Shown piece by piece: positions 4,193-60,229 of a DNA stretch of 64,000 nucleotides. The translations under genes were made by a program, and so were the position numbers. The notes under the pieces were generated by a model. That model saw only the letters and a list, made by a program, of their open reading frames with translations. It was not told where the DNA came from and ran no database searches. Position 1 is the first letter of the stretch. The number at the start of each line of letters is the position of its first letter. The stretch comes from Escherichia coli (GTDB taxonomy: Bacteria; Pseudomonadota; Gammaproteobacteria; Enterobacterales; Enterobacteriaceae), in the NCBI RefSeq assembly GCF_030384885.1, contig NZ_CP128613.1, one strand, 5' to 3'.

Positions 4193-4795
4193 ATGCAAAT
4201 AGTCATGTTTGACAGGCAGTCAATATTTATTCATGGAATGAAAATCAGTTTACAGCAACGTATTCCAGGAGTGAGTATTCAGGGGGCCAGTCAGGCAGAC
4301 GAGTTATGGCAAAAGCTGGAAAGTTACCCTGAAGCCTTAGTGATGCTCGATGGCGATCAGGATGGTGAGTTTTGCTACTGGTTGCTGCAAAAAACCGTGG
4401 TGCAATTTCCTGAGGTTAAGGTGTTAATTACGGCGACGGATTGCAATAAACGGTGGTTACAGGAAGTTATTCATTTTAATGTGCTGGCCATTGTGCCTCG
4501 TGATTCAACCGTCGAGACATTTGCGTTGGCGGTCAATAGTGCGGCGATGGGGATGATGTTTCTGCCTGGAGACTGGCGAACGACGCCGGAAAAGGACATT
4601 AAAGATCTCAAATCGTTAAGCGCCCGCCAGCGGGAGATTTTAACCATGTTAGCGGCGGGCGAATCAAATAAAGAGATCGGCAGGGCGCTGAATATCAGTA
4701 CCGGAACGGTAAAAGCGCATCTGGAATCACTGTATCGCCGTCTGGAAGTGAAAAATCGCACCCAGGCGGCAATGATGTTAAATATCTCCTCCTGA
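4193..4795 (+). CDS. yhjB: LuxR/FixJ-family response-regulator-like DNA-binding protein
   Basis: 200-aa ORF, C-terminal LuxR HTH (LSARQREILTMLAAGESNKEIGRALNISTGTVKAHL). Confidence 0.9.
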   Translation: MQIVMFDRQSIFIHGMKISLQQRIPGVSIQGASQADELWQKLESYPEALVMLDGDQDGEFCYWLLQKTVVQFPEVKVLITATDCNKRWLQEVIHFNVLAIVPRDSTVETFALAVNSAAMGMMFLPGDWRTTPEKDIKDLKSLSARQREILTMLAAGESNKEIGRALNISTGTVKAHLESLYRRLEVKNRTQAAMMLNISS

Positions 4796-54359: not shown

Positions 54360-55933
54360 TAAGGTTTCACCGGTTTAATTTGTTCGAACGGGATTTCGGT
54401 GGCGATCGGCGCGTAGGGGATGTTACCCAGTTCCGGTTTTGAAACCACCATCATTGAGATATAGCTGATGGGCAGATAAACCGCCTCGTCATGCAGACGG
54501 GTCAGAATGTCGCGATACAGTGCCTGACGTTGTGTTTCGTCGTGTGTCGCCAGCACTTCGCCAATCTCTTTATCAATCAGTGGCTTGTCGGCTAAACCTT
54601 GCTGTGCCTGGAAGTCAGCGTGCGACGGTACGCGCATTGAACTCAGGAAGGCGTGTGGATCGTATGGCGCGCCCCAGGTACGGTGGAAAATCATGCCAAA
54701 ACGACCGTCGCGCTGACGAGCATAGATACTGCTCTCTTCTTCGCCGATCAGCGTGACATCCGCGCCAATCTGGCGCATATCAGCCTGAATGATTTCGGCC
54801 ATTGATTTGCTTAACGCATCGGTGCCGATGAACGACAGTTCAATGCGCAGCGGCTGACCATTTTTCTCGCGGATGTCTTTGCCTGCGGGCAGCGTCCAGC
54901 CTGCTTGTTCCAGCAACGCTTTCGCTTTCTGCGGATCGTACTGGCGCGGTTTCAGGCCGAGATTGGCATAGGGCACGGAAGGGGCAAACAGGGTGTCGGC
55001 GACCTGCTGGGTGCCATACAACGCGTTATCGATCAGCGATTTTTTGTTTACCGCGTAATTGAGAGCTTCACGTACGGCCAACTCGTTGGTGGGGGCTTTT
55101 GCAGTATTGAGCGCCAGCATCACGGTTTCGATCGGCTGTGACAGTTGGGTGTGGTAAGCCGGGTTCTGGCTAAAGTGGGCGAAGGTATCGAGCGGTAATA
55201 GCCCTTCATTACCGTATAGCAGATCGATATCGCCGGTTTCAAACGCCACCGCGCGGGTGGTCGGGTCCGGGATCACGTTAAAAGTGATCTTTTTAATCGC
55301 CGACTTTTCGCCCCAGTAGTTTTCGTTACGGACGAAGACATCGTATTGATTCAGTTTCGATTCCTGCAAAACCCACGGCCCGGTGCCAATCGGCGCTTTA
55401 ATCCCGTTCATGGTTTCATTATTTTTAAACTGCGAGGGGGCGATAAAGCGGAAAGGACGGGGCAGGGCCAGTTCTTGCAGGAAAGGGTAGTAGGCGCTTT
55501 TCAGGGTGATTTGCAGCTCGGTTTTACTGAGAGCTTTGACATCAACAATCTGGTTTGCCAGCTCCAGCCAGGCGTGACGTTGACGGTTGTCGAGCACAGC
55601 GCGGAAGTTTTCTGCCGCGGCCTCTGCATCAAACGGTTCACCGTTAGAGAATTTCACATCATCACGCAGGGTGAAGGTCCAGGTTTTGCCATCTTCTGAA
55701 TGGGTCCAGCTTTTTGCCAGCCACGGGCTCACCGAGCCATCTGCCTGATATTTCACCAGTGGTTCATAAACCATGCTCTGGGCGAACATCTGGTTGGGTG
55801 TGTAAAGGTGCGGGTTTAGTGGCCCGACATTCACCGGCCAGGCGGTGGTGATTTCATCTGGTGCAGCGGCATGGACGATAAAAGACGCACAAGCCAGCAG
55901 CGCAAATAGAGTGCGGCGGAGTGTGGAGAGCAT
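54359..55933 (-). CDS. nikA: periplasmic nickel-binding protein
   Basis: 524-aa ORF with signal peptide, family-5 solute-binding protein. Confidence 0.93.
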
Positions 55934-55970
55934 GGTAACCCCAATGGATTAAAATAGATGGCGGAAATAA

Positions 55971-55998
55971 GTATGACGATTTTAAATATTCGTCATAC
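55971..55998. promoter_or_regulatory. NikR operator GTATGA-N16-TCATAC upstream of nikA
   Basis: Exact GTATGAcgattttaaatattcgTCATAC dyad about 40 bp upstream of nikA start. Confidence 0.75.
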
Positions 55999-56043
55999 TG
56001 ATAACCTGTTCTGGATCAATAGATGGGCAGTCGGATAGGCTGA

Positions 56044-56631
56044 TCAGTTAATTGAATCGATCCATTGCACACTGTCGGCGGTGAGCGTAAAGGGAGTAGG
56101 GGTGCAGATCGCCAGACTTAAATTTTCAAGCTGACAATGGCTGACTGACAGCGAGGACTGATAGGTGCTGTCTACGCTGACGATTTGCCAGGCGCTGCCG
56201 CCACGTTGTTTAACGATGGCTTCTTTGCGTGTCCAGATGCGCCAGAACATTTCCAGTTGCTGATCTGGATGCACGGCGTCCATCTCGGCATGTTCTCCGA
56301 GGCTGAACACCGCGTTCGCCAGCCAGCGCCAGTTGGCACGCGGGCGAATCACTTCGATATCGCAGCCGACTTCGCCCTCATCGCTCAACAGTAGGGCAAT
56401 ATCGTCACCGCTATGGCTTAAGTTGAACCATAGCGGCGTTTCCGGCGCGAATGCAGGTTTGCCTTGTTCGCCATAGATGATCTCCGGTAGCGGGGAAAGC
56501 GTGTGTGAAAGCAATGCACGCCCCGCCAGCCAGCGTTCGCGCCGTGGGCCTTGCGGTGCTTGCTCGCGCAAAGCCGGTGGCAGTGGAGCTGCGCTTAAGG
56601 TCGAAACTTTCCCCAGAACTATCCGATACAT
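56044..56631 (-). CDS. acpT: 4'-phosphopantetheinyl transferase (holo-ACP synthase 2)
   Basis: 195-aa ORF, Sfp/EntD-type PPTase; start codon 1 nt from upstream KS stop. Confidence 0.9.
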   Translation of the reverse strand: MYRIVLGKVSTLSAAPLPPALREQAPQGPRRERWLAGRALLSHTLSPLPEIIYGEQGKPAFAPETPLWFNLSHSGDDIALLLSDEGEVGCDIEVIRPRANWRWLANAVFSLGEHAEMDAVHPDQQLEMFWRIWTRKEAIVKQRGGSAWQIVSVDSTYQSSLSVSHCQLENLSLAICTPTPFTLTADSVQWIDSIN

Positions 56632-56632
56632 A

Positions 56633-57862
56633 TCAGGGCCAACGTTTTATGATGATGGATGTATTAATGCCGCCAAAGGCAAAGTTGTTACTCTGCAAAA
56701 ACTCACAATCAATCTTGCGCGCTTCATGCATGATGTAATCCAGCTCGCCACAGTTAGGGTCTGGTTTATTCAGGTTTAGCGTAGGCGCAAACCAGCCTTC
56801 TCGCATCATTTGCAGACTCATCCAGGCTTCGAGCGCGCCACAGGCACCAAGCGTATGACCAAAATAACTTTTCAGCGAGGAGAGCGGCACATTATCACCG
56901 TAAATGGTTGCTGTCGCCAGACTTTCTGCCACATCACCACGATCGGTCGCCGTACCATGCGCCGAAATATAGCCGATATCACTTGCACTTAACCCGGCGA
57001 TTTTTAACGATTTTTCCATACAATATTGCATGGTCTCACGCTGAGGCTGGGTAATATGTGCCGCGTCGCAGTTGGTGGCAAAGCCAACGATTTCACCGTA
57101 AATGGTCGCGCCGCGCGCTTTGGCGTGCTCCAGTTCTTCGAGAATCAGCGTGCCTGCGCCTTCGCCAATCACCAGCCCGTCGCGGTTTTCATCGAACGGT
57201 GAAGGGGTGGTTTTCGGCGCGTCATTATGCTGGCTGGTGGCGAAAAGCGTATCAAATACCGCCGCTTCTGAAGGGCATAACTCTTCGGCGCCACCAGCAA
57301 CCATCACCGTTTGATAACCGTGACGAATGGCTTCCCACGCATAACCGATCGCCTGGCTGCCGGAGGTACAGGCGCTGGAGGTTGGGATCACCCGTCCGCG
57401 CAGGCCAAAAAATAGCCCGGTATTAACGGCGGTGGTGTGCGGCATCATCTGCACATAGGTGGTGCCAGTGATGTTGTTCGTGTGCTTTTCCGTCAGCATG
57501 GTGGCGAACTCGCTCACCGGACCGGTACTGCCGGTCGATGAACCGTACGCAATGCCCGTTTCACCGCTGGTTAATATCGGATCGCCAATCAACCCTGCCT
57601 GCTCTAACGCCAGCTCGCTGGCTCGGGTCGACATTTGCGACACGCGGCCCATCGCACGGATACGCTTGCGGGTGTAGTGCTCCGGTAGTGTGAAATCATC
57701 AATCGGCGCGCCAAGCAGGGTGTGCAGACCATCGTAGACCTGCCACTCCGGCATTTTGCGTACTGCATTCTCATACGCCAGCAGGCGCGCGGAAACGTCC
57801 TGCCAGTTTTCACCAAAGGCAGTCACGCCGCCCATTCCTGTAATTACCACGCGACGTGTCAT
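56633..57862 (-). CDS. beta-ketoacyl-ACP synthase (FabB/FabF-like; apeR-position KS)
   Basis: 409-aa ORF; active-site Cys in SSACTSGS, His motifs in SAHGTATDRGD and FGHTLGACG. Confidence 0.85.
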   Translation of the reverse strand: MTRRVVITGMGGVTAFGENWQDVSARLLAYENAVRKMPEWQVYDGLHTLLGAPIDDFTLPEHYTRKRIRAMGRVSQMSTRASELALEQAGLIGDPILTSGETGIAYGSSTGSTGPVSEFATMLTEKHTNNITGTTYVQMMPHTTAVNTGLFFGLRGRVIPTSSACTSGSQAIGYAWEAIRHGYQTVMVAGGAEELCPSEAAVFDTLFATSQHNDAPKTTPSPFDENRDGLVIGEGAGTLILEELEHAKARGATIYGEIVGFATNCDAAHITQPQRETMQYCMEKSLKIAGLSASDIGYISAHGTATDRGDVAESLATATIYGDNVPLSSLKSYFGHTLGACGALEAWMSLQMMREGWFAPTLNLNKPDPNCGELDYIMHEARKIDCEFLQSNNFAFGGINTSIIIKRWP

Positions 57863-58590
57863 AACATCCCTCCGTTGATGGAAATAACCTGGCGGGTGAC
57901 GTAACCCGCAATATCAGACATTAAATAGCTGGCAAGCCCGGCAACTTCTTCCGCCTGGCCCATGCGTTTCATGGGGATCATCGACATTGCCTCTTTCAGA
58001 GCGCTCTCTTCCATTTCGATCATCCCGGTATCAATAAGCCCCGGCGCGATGCAGTTGACGGTGATTTTGCGCTTCGCGAGTTCGATAGCCAGTGCTTTTG
58101 TTGCGCCGATAATTCCGGCTTTGGCAGCGCTGTAGTTCACCTGGCCGCGATTGCCCATTACGCCGGAAACCGAGGACAGCGTGATGATGCGTCCACCCTG
58201 GCGTGCGCCGATCATCGGCATAATGCACGGCTGAATGACGTTGTAGAAACTGTCGAGGTTGGTGTGGATCACCGCATCCCAGTCGTCATCGCTTAAAGCC
58301 GGAAAAGCGGCATCGCGGGCGATCCCGGCGTTACTAACCACGCCGTACCAGGCACCGTGTTGCGCGATCTCGTGCTCCAGCACTTCCCGACACTGTTCGC
58401 GGTTTGCGACGTCGAAACTGAGCAAACGCCCGTTACCACCGTTGGCGACAATGGTATTCAGCGTTTCCTGAGCGCCTGTGGCGTCACGGTGATAGTGAAC
58501 GCCAATATTAAAGCCGTCTGCCGCCAGTTGGCAGGCGATGGCGCGACCAATGCCTTTGCTGGCACCAGTAACCAGAACTGAACGACTCAT
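57859..58590 (-). CDS. 3-oxoacyl-ACP reductase (SDR, FabG-like; apeQ-position)
   Basis: 243-aa ORF; Rossmann TGASKGIGRA, SDR catalytic YSAAK. Confidence 0.88.
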   Translation of the reverse strand: MSRSVLVTGASKGIGRAIACQLAADGFNIGVHYHRDATGAQETLNTIVANGGNGRLLSFDVANREQCREVLEHEIAQHGAWYGVVSNAGIARDAAFPALSDDDWDAVIHTNLDSFYNVIQPCIMPMIGARQGGRIITLSSVSGVMGNRGQVNYSAAKAGIIGATKALAIELAKRKITVNCIAPGLIDTGMIEMEESALKEAMSMIPMKRMGQAEEVAGLASYLMSDIAGYVTRQVISINGGML

Positions 58591-59054
58591 CAGGACGCTC
58601 CTTGTTGAAACAGGGTGGTAAGTTCTTCCGCGGTCGGCTGGAAGGTGTTAATGCGGCCCGTTGCCTCGCCGTCGTTGATGCTGCACTCAAAACTACCGAA
58701 GCGTTCATCTTGCATCAGCAGTTTGACGGTAATGGTCAGCGTCTGGCCTGCGGGCAGAATGCCAGCGGCGCAAAGCAATTCACGCGCGCCCAGTACCATC
58801 CCTAACTCAATACTGTTTTTGCCCTGCTGGTGGCGATGCCAGCCAGACCAGACGCCGACGGTTTGCGCCATCAGTTCAAGGGCAAACCAGCCAGGGAGAT
58901 TGCCGTCCGGGTCGAGAAACGGTGCCAGTACACCACTGGGCGAAACCGTCACGCGGCACACGGCGCTGTCATCGCTGACGCTCACCACTTCTTCCAGCAG
59001 CAACATGGGCGCATCGTGGGGCAGATAAGCGCCGGGTGATAAATAGTGGCTCAC
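58590..59054 (-). CDS. hotdog-fold 3-hydroxyacyl-ACP dehydratase (FabA/FabZ-like; apeP-position)
   Basis: 154-aa ORF, hotdog dehydratase-like, translationally coupled to neighbours. Confidence 0.75.
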   Translation of the reverse strand: MSHYLSPGAYLPHDAPMLLLEEVVSVSDDSAVCRVTVSPSGVLAPFLDPDGNLPGWFALELMAQTVGVWSGWHRHQQGKNSIELGMVLGARELLCAAGILPAGQTLTITVKLLMQDERFGSFECSINDGEATGRINTFQPTAEELTTLFQQGAS

Positions 59055-60229
59055 GAAACCCTCCCGAGCAGAATGCTGGCGTTATTGCCGCCAAAGGCGA
59101 AGGAATTGGACAGGATCACCGGACGTGCCAGCGGCTGTGGTTTTTCGATAATGCCGCACGGTGGCAGCGTGGGATCGCGTGGCGACAGGCTGAAGTCCTG
59201 AGCGGGCAGCGGTAAATCACGCTGTAAGATCAACATACTGATTGCCGCCTCGGTAATGCCCGCCGCGCCCAGCGTGTGTCCGGTCAAATGTTTGGTGGAG
59301 CTGCACGGTACGCGTTCGCCAAACAGGGCGTTAACCACTATTGATTCAATCTGGTCGTTGAGTTGTGTGGCGGTGCCGTGCAGGTTGATATAGCCGACGT
59401 CATCTGGCGTAAGCTGCGCATCGGTCAGCGCCTGGTTAATAGCGCGGATTGCCCCTTCGCCCTGCGGATGCGGGGCCGAAATATGGTAAGCGTCGCTCGA
59501 TTCACCAACGCCCAGTAACGCGATGGGCTGCGGTTCACGGGTCAGCAGCATTAGCCCCGCGCCTTCGCCAATGGTGATGCCCGCACGGTCACGACCAAAC
59601 GGCTGACATAAGGTTGGCGACAGCGATTCGAGGCTGTGAAAACCGTTAATTGGCATCCGGCTCAGGGTGTCTGCGCCACCCACAATGGCGGCATCGACCA
59701 GCCCCGCTTCGATAAGCCTGCGCCCGCTGATCATCGCTCTGGCGCTGGAAGAGCAGGCGGTTGAAAGAGTATATGCCGGGCCGTCGAGCGCCAGCCAGTG
59801 GCTGAGAAAACGCGACGGATCGCCGAGTTCCTGCTGCGCGTAGTGCCATGTGGTGCTTGGCTGCCCGTGGGTGCGCAGGTTAACGTGCGTGTCGCCTTCA
59901 TGCAGGCCGGAGGTGCTGGTGCCAAGCACAATCGCAATGCGCTCGCGGCCATATTTTGCGATGGCGTCATCAACCTGCGGCTGGATCTGCGCCAGCGCCG
60001 CCAGCAGGATCTGATTGTTGCGCGAGCGGTGCGCAGCGAATTTTTCCGGGATAAGCGGAAGCTCGCCATCCACGCCAGCCAGGACCGCCTGCGGATGCCC
60101 CTGCAACCAGCCTGCGCGTGGGCGCATTCCGGGAGCAACACCGCGAGTCAGGTTGGCTGCGATCTCATCAAGATTATTTCCCAGGGCGTTGATCATGCCA
60201 ACGGCGGAAATATAAATCATATTAGTCAC
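59051..60229 (-). CDS. beta-ketoacyl-ACP synthase (apeO-position KS)
   Basis: 392-aa ORF; thiolase fold, Cys in STACSSSARAM, HGTATQLND, GHTLGAAG. Confidence 0.85.
   Translation of the reverse strand: MTNMIYISAVGMINALGNNLDEIAANLTRGVAPGMRPRAGWLQGHPQAVLAGVDGELPLIPEKFAAHRSRNNQILLAALAQIQPQVDDAIAKYGRERIAIVLGTSTSGLHEGDTHVNLRTHGQPSTTWHYAQQELGDPSRFLSHWLALDGPAYTLSTACSSSARAMISGRRLIEAGLVDAAIVGGADTLSRMPINGFHSLESLSPTLCQPFGRDRAGITIGEGAGLMLLTREPQPIALLGVGESSDAYHISAPHPQGEGAIRAINQALTDAQLTPDDVGYINLHGTATQLNDQIESIVVNALFGERVPCSSTKHLTGHTLGAAGITEAAISMLILQRDLPLPAQDFSLSPRDPTLPPCGIIEKPQPLARPVILSNSFAFGGNNASILLGRVS

Follow-up and report, generated by a model that had tools for sequence, protein, structure and literature searches.

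The Sfp-type (group II) PPTase genes sfp and entD lie beside the genes of the carrier proteins that their products prime, sfp adjoining the srfA operon and entD residing in the enterobactin region. Both are separate transcription units or are set off by normal intergenic regions. Here, we investigated acpT, a gene with the same kind of product and neighborhood that, unlike sfp and entD, starts 1 nt after the last biosynthetic gene of its cluster. Termination-reinitiation coupling is known from trpE-trpD, trpB-trpA, and similar pairs, in which stop and start codons lie within a few nucleotides and the downstream Shine-Dalgarno (SD) sequence is weak. The junction between apeR and acpT has both features. 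However, it carries a 1-nt spacer (UGA-U-AUG) in place of the overlapping AUGA or UGAUG forms, and coupling is putative here.

The APE_Ec cluster of CFT073 and Nissle 1917 is reportedly the one described by Cimermancic in 2014. Its product class, an aryl-polyene (APE) outer-membrane lipid, was shown for the CFT073 cluster, in which apeR is c1186, the terminal ketosynthase, and which comes without a dedicated PPTase (Johnston et al. 2021, PMC8253772). The same paper describes pigment made from the CFT073 cluster in E. coli Top10, a cluster-less K-12 derivative. The closest described system to ours is O-island 138 with acpT in E. coli O157:H7 EDL933, which occupies the same position between yhhT and nikA with its genes in the same order. 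A link between AcpT and this cluster is already known, as later papers cite it, from De Lay & Cronan 2006 (Mol Microbiol 61:232; cited in PMC8253772 and PMC4103896). As summarized in PMC8253772, that study found that AcpT activates the O157:H7 ApeE/F homologues in vitro, and the island carrier proteins reported there as its substrates are Z4853 and Z4854. A 2014 survey of group II PPTases makes the same statement about AcpT and the cluster in weaker wording (PMC4103896).

The window, the whole 64,000-nucleotide stretch of E. coli DNA that we analyzed, contains acpT and the adjoining cluster up to a truncated thioesterase gene; the remaining cluster genes lie beyond position 64000. The 1.8 kb covering both genes of the junction is 100% identical to E. 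coli 2013C-4282 (NZ_CP027579.1), and the record of that strain was used to complete the gene set. The locus is the chromosomal APE cluster between yhhT and acpT, which is O-island 138 in O157:H7. The O157:H7 strain is a different one from the window strain (equivalent here to 2013C-4282) and is about 5% diverged, with 95.3% nucleotide identity over the ketosynthase and acpT. RefSeq shows an identical 1-nt gap between ketosynthase and acpT in O157:H7 JEONG-1266. The features are as follows.

55934..56043, minus strand: acpT-nikA intergenic region, 110 nt (sequence)
56044..56631, minus strand: acpT, Sfp-type 4'-phosphopantetheinyl transferase, 195 aa (ORF list, PF01648, NF007676)
56629..56635, minus strand: junction TGA-T-ATG (direct reading)
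56632..56660, minus strand: last ~20-30 nt of the ketosynthase gene, the very weak ribosome-binding region of acpT (anti-SD pairing); remains as a deletion scar in cluster-less E. coli (K-12), Salmonella, and Citrobacter
56633..57862, minus strand: apeR-type beta-ketoacyl-ACP synthase, 409 aa, last ketosynthase of the cluster (PF00109, PF02801, NF006587)
57859..58590, minus strand: FabG2-type 3-ketoacyl-ACP reductase, overlapping the ketosynthase start by 4 nt (Pfam, RefSeq, TIGR01831)
58590..59054, minus strand: ApeP-family dehydratase (PF22817, E = 4e-40; RefSeq)
59051..60220, minus strand: apeO-type ketosynthase, ATG 1 nt past the DUF3261 stop (Pfam, RefSeq, NCBIfam)
60222..60806, minus strand: DUF3261 protein, apeN position (Pfam, RefSeq)
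60803..63118, minus strand: MMPL/RND-type transporter, apeM position (Pfam, RefSeq)
63087..63692, minus strand: LolA-like protein, apeL position (Pfam, RefSeq)
63689..64000, minus strand: acyl-CoA thioesterase gene, cut by the window end (coordinates transferred from the 2013C-4282 record)

The cluster in 2013C-4282 comprises 18 same-strand genes that begin just downstream of yhhT and end with the ketosynthase, followed by acpT on the same strand and then by nikABCDE-nikR. Their products, from the yhhT side, are a small hypothetical protein, a methyltransferase, a chain-length factor, a lysophospholipid acyltransferase, two carrier proteins, a second hypothetical protein, an AMP-binding enzyme, an ApeI-family dehydratase, and a GT2 glycosyltransferase. 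A thioesterase, a LolA-like protein, an MMPL transporter, a DUF3261 protein, a ketosynthase, an ApeP-family dehydratase, FabG2, and the apeR-type ketosynthase complete the set. The APE hallmark set is present on one strand (ApeP/ApeI, a KS/CLF pair plus a third KS, two ACPs, adenylating enzyme, methyltransferase, LPLAT, GT2, thioesterase, LolA-like, MMPL, and DUF3261), as judged by Pfam matches for the part inside the window and by the annotation of the identical 2013C-4282 record for the remainder. The carrier-protein genes lie ~4 kb past position 64000, and both proteins contain an LDSID attachment serine motif. Thirteen of the 19 cluster junctions are at most 4 nt or overlapping, with gaps mostly between -32 and +11 nt, and the junction from DUF3261 to apeO has the same form as that of acpT (TAA-T-ATG). 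The flanking gaps are wide: 110 nt from acpT to nikA and 391 nt from yhhT to the first cluster gene. Within the acpT-nikA intergenic region lies a GTATGA-N16-TCATAC palindrome (55971-55998), which is of the NikR-operator type known from the nik promoter. The base composition of acpT (GC 0.565, GC3 0.607) fits both the 3' half of the cluster and the nik genes and so does not discriminate.

The 409-aa ketosynthase is a complete protein that scores 779 bits against NCBIfam NF006587 (cut-off 470). At the nucleotide level, it is 93.6-93.7% identical to the ketosynthase that ends the island-borne copies in SCU-101 and Nissle 1917, and it is the orthologue of apeR. The APE_Ec cluster of CFT073/Nissle 1917, compared here through the SCU-101 and Nissle 1917 copies, has the same 18 genes in the same order as the window cluster. 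Its location differs from that of the window cluster: a genomic island associated with an integrase, at another chromosomal site. The SCU-101 copy, for example, lies beside an integrase gene and shows the same gene order at 93.6% nucleotide identity; its homology ends at the apeR stop, and a hairpin-like sequence follows there, with no acpT. Aryl-polyene lipid production has been demonstrated for the CFT073 cluster and is predicted for that of the window strain.

Next, we examined the junction itself. Both genes are read from the minus strand, which the earlier note on this DNA had left unstated. The ketosynthase ORF (56633..57862) ends in ...IIIKRWP* with its TGA stop at 56635..56633, a single T at 56632 forms the spacer, and the acpT ATG occupies 56631..56629. 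The reverse complement reads ...ATC ATC ATA AAA CGT TGG CCC TGA T ATG TAT CGG ATA GTT CTG GGG..., and the acpT ORF (56044..56631, 195 aa) begins MYRIVLGKV.... The earlier note had put acpT 1 nt from the last ketosynthase gene, and its coordinates prove exact, as TGA-T-ATG can be read directly. The start codon of acpT is sound: none of 14 orthologues departs from M1 and Y2, and the RefSeq annotations of 2013C-4282, O157:H7, and K-12 begin the gene at this codon. Stop and start codons (UGA-U-AUG) thus lie within the few nucleotides typical of coupled pairs. A gap of 1 nt is by itself unremarkable for an operon.

To place the junction in the family, we built an AcpT alignment and then analyzed 80 species-representative Enterobacteriaceae loci from GTDB genomes. 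A full-length apeR-type ketosynthase lies directly upstream of acpT in 52 of the 80. The gap between the two genes is 1 nt in 22 of these 52 loci, 2 nt in 28, 3 nt in one, and -1 nt in one, and the commonest junction type, TGATATG, is found in 18 species. The stop codon and spacer bases vary, while the stop-start distance is constant at -1 to +3 nt. Tight junctions occur in Escherichia, Citrobacter, Superficieibacter, Raoultella, Klebsiella, Kluyvera, Enterobacter, and Leclercia, as well as in Lelliottia, Silvania, Kosakonia, Pluralibacter, Cedecea, Huaxiibacter, and Phytobacter. The pair apeR/acpT therefore shows the combination of same strand, very short gap, and cross-species adjacency that serves as an operon criterion. 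Kept across 52 of 80 loci and many genera, the adjacency of apeR and acpT is ancestral in the family, the end of one gene has remained joined to the start of the other, and the tight junction is not accidental.

The acpT product matches Pfam PF01648 and the NCBIfam AcpT equivalog NF007676 over residues 1-195 of 195, at 395.4 bits with a cut-off of 174. Using (V/I)G(V/I/C)D…E and W/F-(S/T)-x-K-E-(A/S)-x-x-K as motif criteria, we found both PPTase motifs, VGCDIE (88-93) and WTRKEAIVK (133-141), which are invariant in 14 orthologues. The nearest solved structure is Sfp (1qr0). The suggestion that AcpT serves the cluster's own carrier proteins had in effect been published already, since the activation of the O157:H7 ApeE/F homologues in vitro, cited in PMC8253772, bears it out. 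Very probably, acpT encodes the PPTase for the carrier proteins of the ancestral APE operon.

We then analyzed the expression signals around the junction. The 22 nt upstream of the acpT ATG pair with the 16S rRNA tail at -1.5 kcal/mol, the third weakest SD of the 21 genes tested (18 cluster genes plus acpT, nikA, and yhhT). Values for apeR, FabG2, and ApeP are -8 to -11 kcal/mol, and the better cluster sites overall range from -5 to -11, while several other cluster genes likewise have a weak SD. acpT is thus without an effective SD of its own, as is expected of the downstream gene of a coupled pair. A consensus scan of 55800-58000, which would miss weak or non-sigma-70 promoters inside apeR, found no consensus promoter within ~420 nt upstream of acpT; its sole promoter-like site is at 57081..57053, ~420 nt upstream. 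No terminator-like site turned up near the junction or past the end of acpT in the same scan, and shuffled sequence gave promoter and terminator counts of the same level. The 141 nt around the junction have a minimum free energy of -29.1 versus a shuffle mean of -33.0 (z = +1.12), which is no significant fold that could sequester the acpT start. Coupling by structure unmasking was therefore rejected, as the junction folds no better than shuffles, and coupling, if real, would proceed by reinitiation given the unstructured start. The supplements of the SMRT-Cappable-seq work on K-12 contain no mention of acpT or yhhT. Microarray papers describe co-regulation of the O-island 138 genes (RpoS-repressed, and induced on epithelial contact) and do not mention acpT. 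Co-transcription of acpT with the cluster is very likely, and translational coupling to apeR, suggested by the spacing and the weak SD, is plausible.

The gene is also found without the cluster. A search of 5426 complete E. coli genomes matched acpT in 5425, with the ketosynthase adjacent in only 569. The ketosynthase occurs at any location in 824 complete E. coli genomes, so the cluster lies elsewhere in about 255, SCU-101 and Nissle 1917 among them. In about 85% of complete E. coli genomes, one of them K-12, apeR is absent and acpT is kept, with a 20-30 nt remnant of the ketosynthase upstream of it. We compared the window with the region upstream of acpT in K-12, as had been proposed earlier. 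In K-12, yhhT is followed by a 54-nt spacer and then acpT, and the last ~20-30 nt of this spacer are the recognizable 3' end of apeR (...CCATTAAACGTTGGCCCTGAT-ATG). A decayed ketosynthase 3' end is common to the K-12, Salmonella, and Citrobacter spacers (…ATTAAACGTTGGCCCTGAT-ATG), and the cluster-less E. coli sampled all match the window up to the same point, 56651. The spacing is 55 nt in Salmonella and 66-67 nt in the Citrobacter freundii group. In some Enterobacter and Leclercia, ~130 nt of apeR (42-49 codons) remain, and there is a further class of 84-107 nt. The sequences indicate at least four or five independent deletions of the cluster, with acpT spared each time.

acpT evolves under purifying selection with and without the cluster, as dN/dS is 0.05-0.16 both for cluster-bearing pairs and for pairs with the same deletion, and 0.11 for K-12 versus E. 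albertii (dS 0.32). Because this selection persists in cluster-less lineages, acpT can be expressed without apeR. The gene is evolutionarily separable from the cluster, since orphan acpT is selected, the island copy has no acpT, and the CFT073 cluster works in K-12. Pigmentation of Top10 by the CFT073 cluster means that carrier-protein priming works in trans, and linkage of acpT in cis is unnecessary for function, given an island copy without acpT that is functional in a K-12 host. In the light of these data, the assertion that acpT is not an independent gene goes too far: it is present in 5425 of 5426 genomes, mostly cluster-less, and is under purifying selection there. Its description as the terminal gene of the operon fared better. 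It is the last same-strand gene of a tight cluster, behind a conserved junction of at most 3 nt, but its dependence on that cluster was overstated, as it persists where the cluster is gone. Very probably, acpT is the terminal, co-transcribed, and plausibly coupled gene of an ancestral APE operon.

We propose, with a probability of roughly 0.7, that acpT is the ancestral last gene of the APE operon, made on the same mRNA and probably translated by reinitiation, and that AcpT primes the carrier proteins of the cluster. Anatomy, conservation, and protein families come from the present analysis and AcpT activity from the literature; from these, we infer co-transcription and coupling. Under this proposal, acpT would be the ancestral last gene of the chromosomal APE operon found between yhhT and nikA in Enterobacteriaceae, and acpT and the cluster would share one polycistronic mRNA. 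Ribosomes ending at the apeR UGA would probably re-initiate two bases on at the acpT AUG; reinitiation is probable because an SD belonging to acpT itself is almost absent. A small dose of AcpT would then be made whenever the cluster is expressed, and it would turn ApeE and ApeF (Z4853/Z4854 in O157:H7) from apo to holo. It is possible, although we think it somewhat unlikely, that acpT is co-transcribed but translated independently, by low-rate de novo loading on an A/U-rich unstructured start, so that the spacing reflects compaction and no true coupling. The start region is indeed without significant structure, several other cluster genes also manage with a weak SD, and in K-12-type genomes, where no full ketosynthase gene precedes acpT, the 20 nt before its ATG are retained and acpT is still selected. 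However, an SD as nearly absent as -1.5 kcal/mol is difficult to reconcile with independent loading. The stop-start distance of -1 to +3 nt in 52 of 52 ketosynthase-intact species is the geometry expected of termination-reinitiation, and the 1-nt distance to the acpT ATG is preserved at the end of a short ORF even in K-12, E. albertii, and Salmonella.

A quite unlikely reading makes acpT a core gene in its own right, driven by a promoter within the 3' end of the ketosynthase gene and merely abutted by the cluster. The near-universal presence of acpT in E. coli, mostly without the cluster, and purifying selection on it in cluster-less lineages fit such a promoter, and the cluster-less spacers carry an extended -10-like TGnTAC(A/G)(A/C)T. 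In the cluster-bearing sequence, however, the TG of this putative element is absent (ATTAATACA) and the scan of the 420 nt preceding acpT gave no consensus promoter. Operon membership is favored by a tight junction that does not vary from genus to genus, and an internal promoter would supplement read-through, not exclude it. Insertion of a mobile island between yhhT and acpT, with K-12 as the ancestral empty site and the adjacency accidental, is highly improbable. It would suit the definition of the cluster as an "O-island" absent from K-12 and the near-identical cluster on an integrase-associated island in other strains. However, the ketosynthase remnants in the K-12, Salmonella, and Citrobacter spacers are deletion scars and not empty sites, some Enterobacter and Leclercia loci keep ~130 nt of the ketosynthase, and the junction is common to many genera. 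To judge from its title and the papers citing it, De Lay & Cronan 2006 also speaks against accidental insertion. We rejected insertion beside a core gene because of these scars in cluster-less genomes.

The preferred reading, acpT as the ancestral last gene of the APE operon, is a nucleotide-level, family-wide confirmation of the published link between AcpT and the O-island 138 APE cluster, and the finding is correct but ordinary because that link was published in 2006. For annotation and genome mining, the chromosomal Enterobacteriaceae APE cluster should be drawn to include acpT, and this explains why the CFT073-type island copy "lacks" a PPTase. Polar apeR mutations may also lower AcpT. Repeated deletions sparing acpT, together with selection on the orphan gene, are of modest interest for the unexplained role of AcpT in K-12. 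A tentative and rather unlikely reading is that the remnant ketosynthase 3' end has been retained and reshaped as the expression signal of orphan acpT, which would stay expressed on account of a function selected outside the cluster. The lineages concerned are those that have lost the cluster, namely K-12 and most E. coli, E. albertii, Salmonella arizonae/diarizonae, and some Citrobacter. One candidate for the signal within the remnant is a 14-18 codon relay ORF, from the yhhT stop to 1 nt before acpT, or an extended -10 (TGnTACxxT). On thin evidence, either the mini-ORF or the extended -10 could explain the continued expression of orphan acpT.

We also made several observations on the spacer of cluster-less genomes. 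No mention of a K-12 mini-ORF peptide or of a yhhT-acpT operon was found in the literature. An ORF of 17-18 codons occupies the spacer in K-12, E. whittamii, E. albertii, and Salmonella arizonae/diarizonae; in K-12, it has 18 codons between yhhT and acpT (MRRQVIRYALSFSIKRWP). It starts with an ATG that shares bases with the yhhT stop codon (ATGA) and terminates at the former apeR TGA, 1 nt ahead of acpT. An in-frame 3-nt indel separates the Escherichia and Salmonella versions. Some Citrobacter have a shorter mini-ORF, and in the C. freundii group it is disrupted. TGnTAC(A/G)(A/C)T is common to all spacers of this class and resembles an extended -10 element. Within Escherichia, the spacer is near-invariant, with 0-1 differences per 54 nt versus a dS of 0.25-0.32 for acpT.

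The yhhT-acpT spacer of cluster-less E. coli holds a decayed 3' end of the ketosynthase gene (K-12 locus L002, 4589-4642, minus strand), and the conserved part of this K-12 remnant corresponds to window positions 56632-56660, at the apeR-acpT junction. The length of the remnant differs by genus, from 20 to ~135 nt. Because the remnants differ between genera, we infer that the aryl-polyene cluster was deleted several times independently, with acpT spared each time. At three Leclercia and Enterobacter loci (L057, L073, and L079), ketosynthase matches directly upstream of acpT are only partial, from residue 218-301 onward, and yhhT was not found within ~4 kb. The clusters at these loci look like they are undergoing decay.

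The short spacers of the K-12 class share the motif TGnTAC(A/G)(A/C)T (on the minus strand of L002 at about 4615-4630, and where L029, L014, and L021 align with it; TGATACGAT in K-12 and TGCTACAAT in Salmonella), which by sequence resembles an extended -10 promoter. Escherichia species show 0-1 differences across the 54-nt spacer, compared with an acpT dS of 0.25-0.32. The spacer also contains an ORF of 17-18 codons (L002 4589-4645, minus strand; MRRQVIRYALSFSIKRWP in K-12), likewise present in L006, L008, L010, L029, and L030. The start codon of this ORF overlaps the yhhT stop (ATGA), and its end is separated from the acpT ATG by 1 nt. A 3-nt indel between Escherichia and Salmonella leaves its reading frame intact, and the frame is disrupted in the Citrobacter freundii group. 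One possible role for the ORF is that of a translational relay leading into acpT.

In cluster-bearing strains, a hairpin (AATGGCCAC…GTGGCCATT) lies 3' of yhhT, outside the window (35944-35975, minus strand, in the identical 2013C-4282 locus L001), and was not called by a simple terminator scan. A 391-nt AT-rich region also follows yhhT in these strains and contains a promoter-like site (L001 35809..35781). K-12-type genomes have neither the hairpin nor the AT-rich region, and their acpT would be read from yhhT instead. On the other flank, no terminator-like site was found between acpT and nikA (window 55934-56043), so the nik promoter region may receive read-through of cluster or acpT transcripts. 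This spacer carries a GTATGA-N16-TCATAC palindrome (window 55971-55998), which fits the NikR operator form.

Within the operon, the DUF3261-to-apeO junction (window 60220-60222, TAA-T-ATG) has the same 1-nt form as that at acpT, along with a weak Shine-Dalgarno sequence (-3.7 kcal/mol). The junction at acpT thus conforms to the pattern of the aryl-polyene operon.

A second version of the 18-gene cluster (about 93.6% nucleotide identity) occurs in E. coli SCU-101 (L003 18001-33022), near dgcT in a region that also encodes an integrase, and in Nissle 1917 (H64) as well. Here, apeR is the last gene; a hairpin (CCACATGG-ACATC-CCATGTGG) comes after it, and acpT is absent. In about 255 of the complete E. 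coli genomes, the cluster is present solely at sites away from acpT. Matches fall at 853 places in 840 records, which suggests two copies in about 13 records.

At 56044-57862 the window strain shows unusual divergence: of 5426 records, only 2 reach at least 99% identity, and the value for O157:H7 is 95.3%. Elsewhere in the window (41823-45314), a DUF4049 gene pair, tandem paralogues of 535 and 540 aa, lies between yhiM and yhiI.
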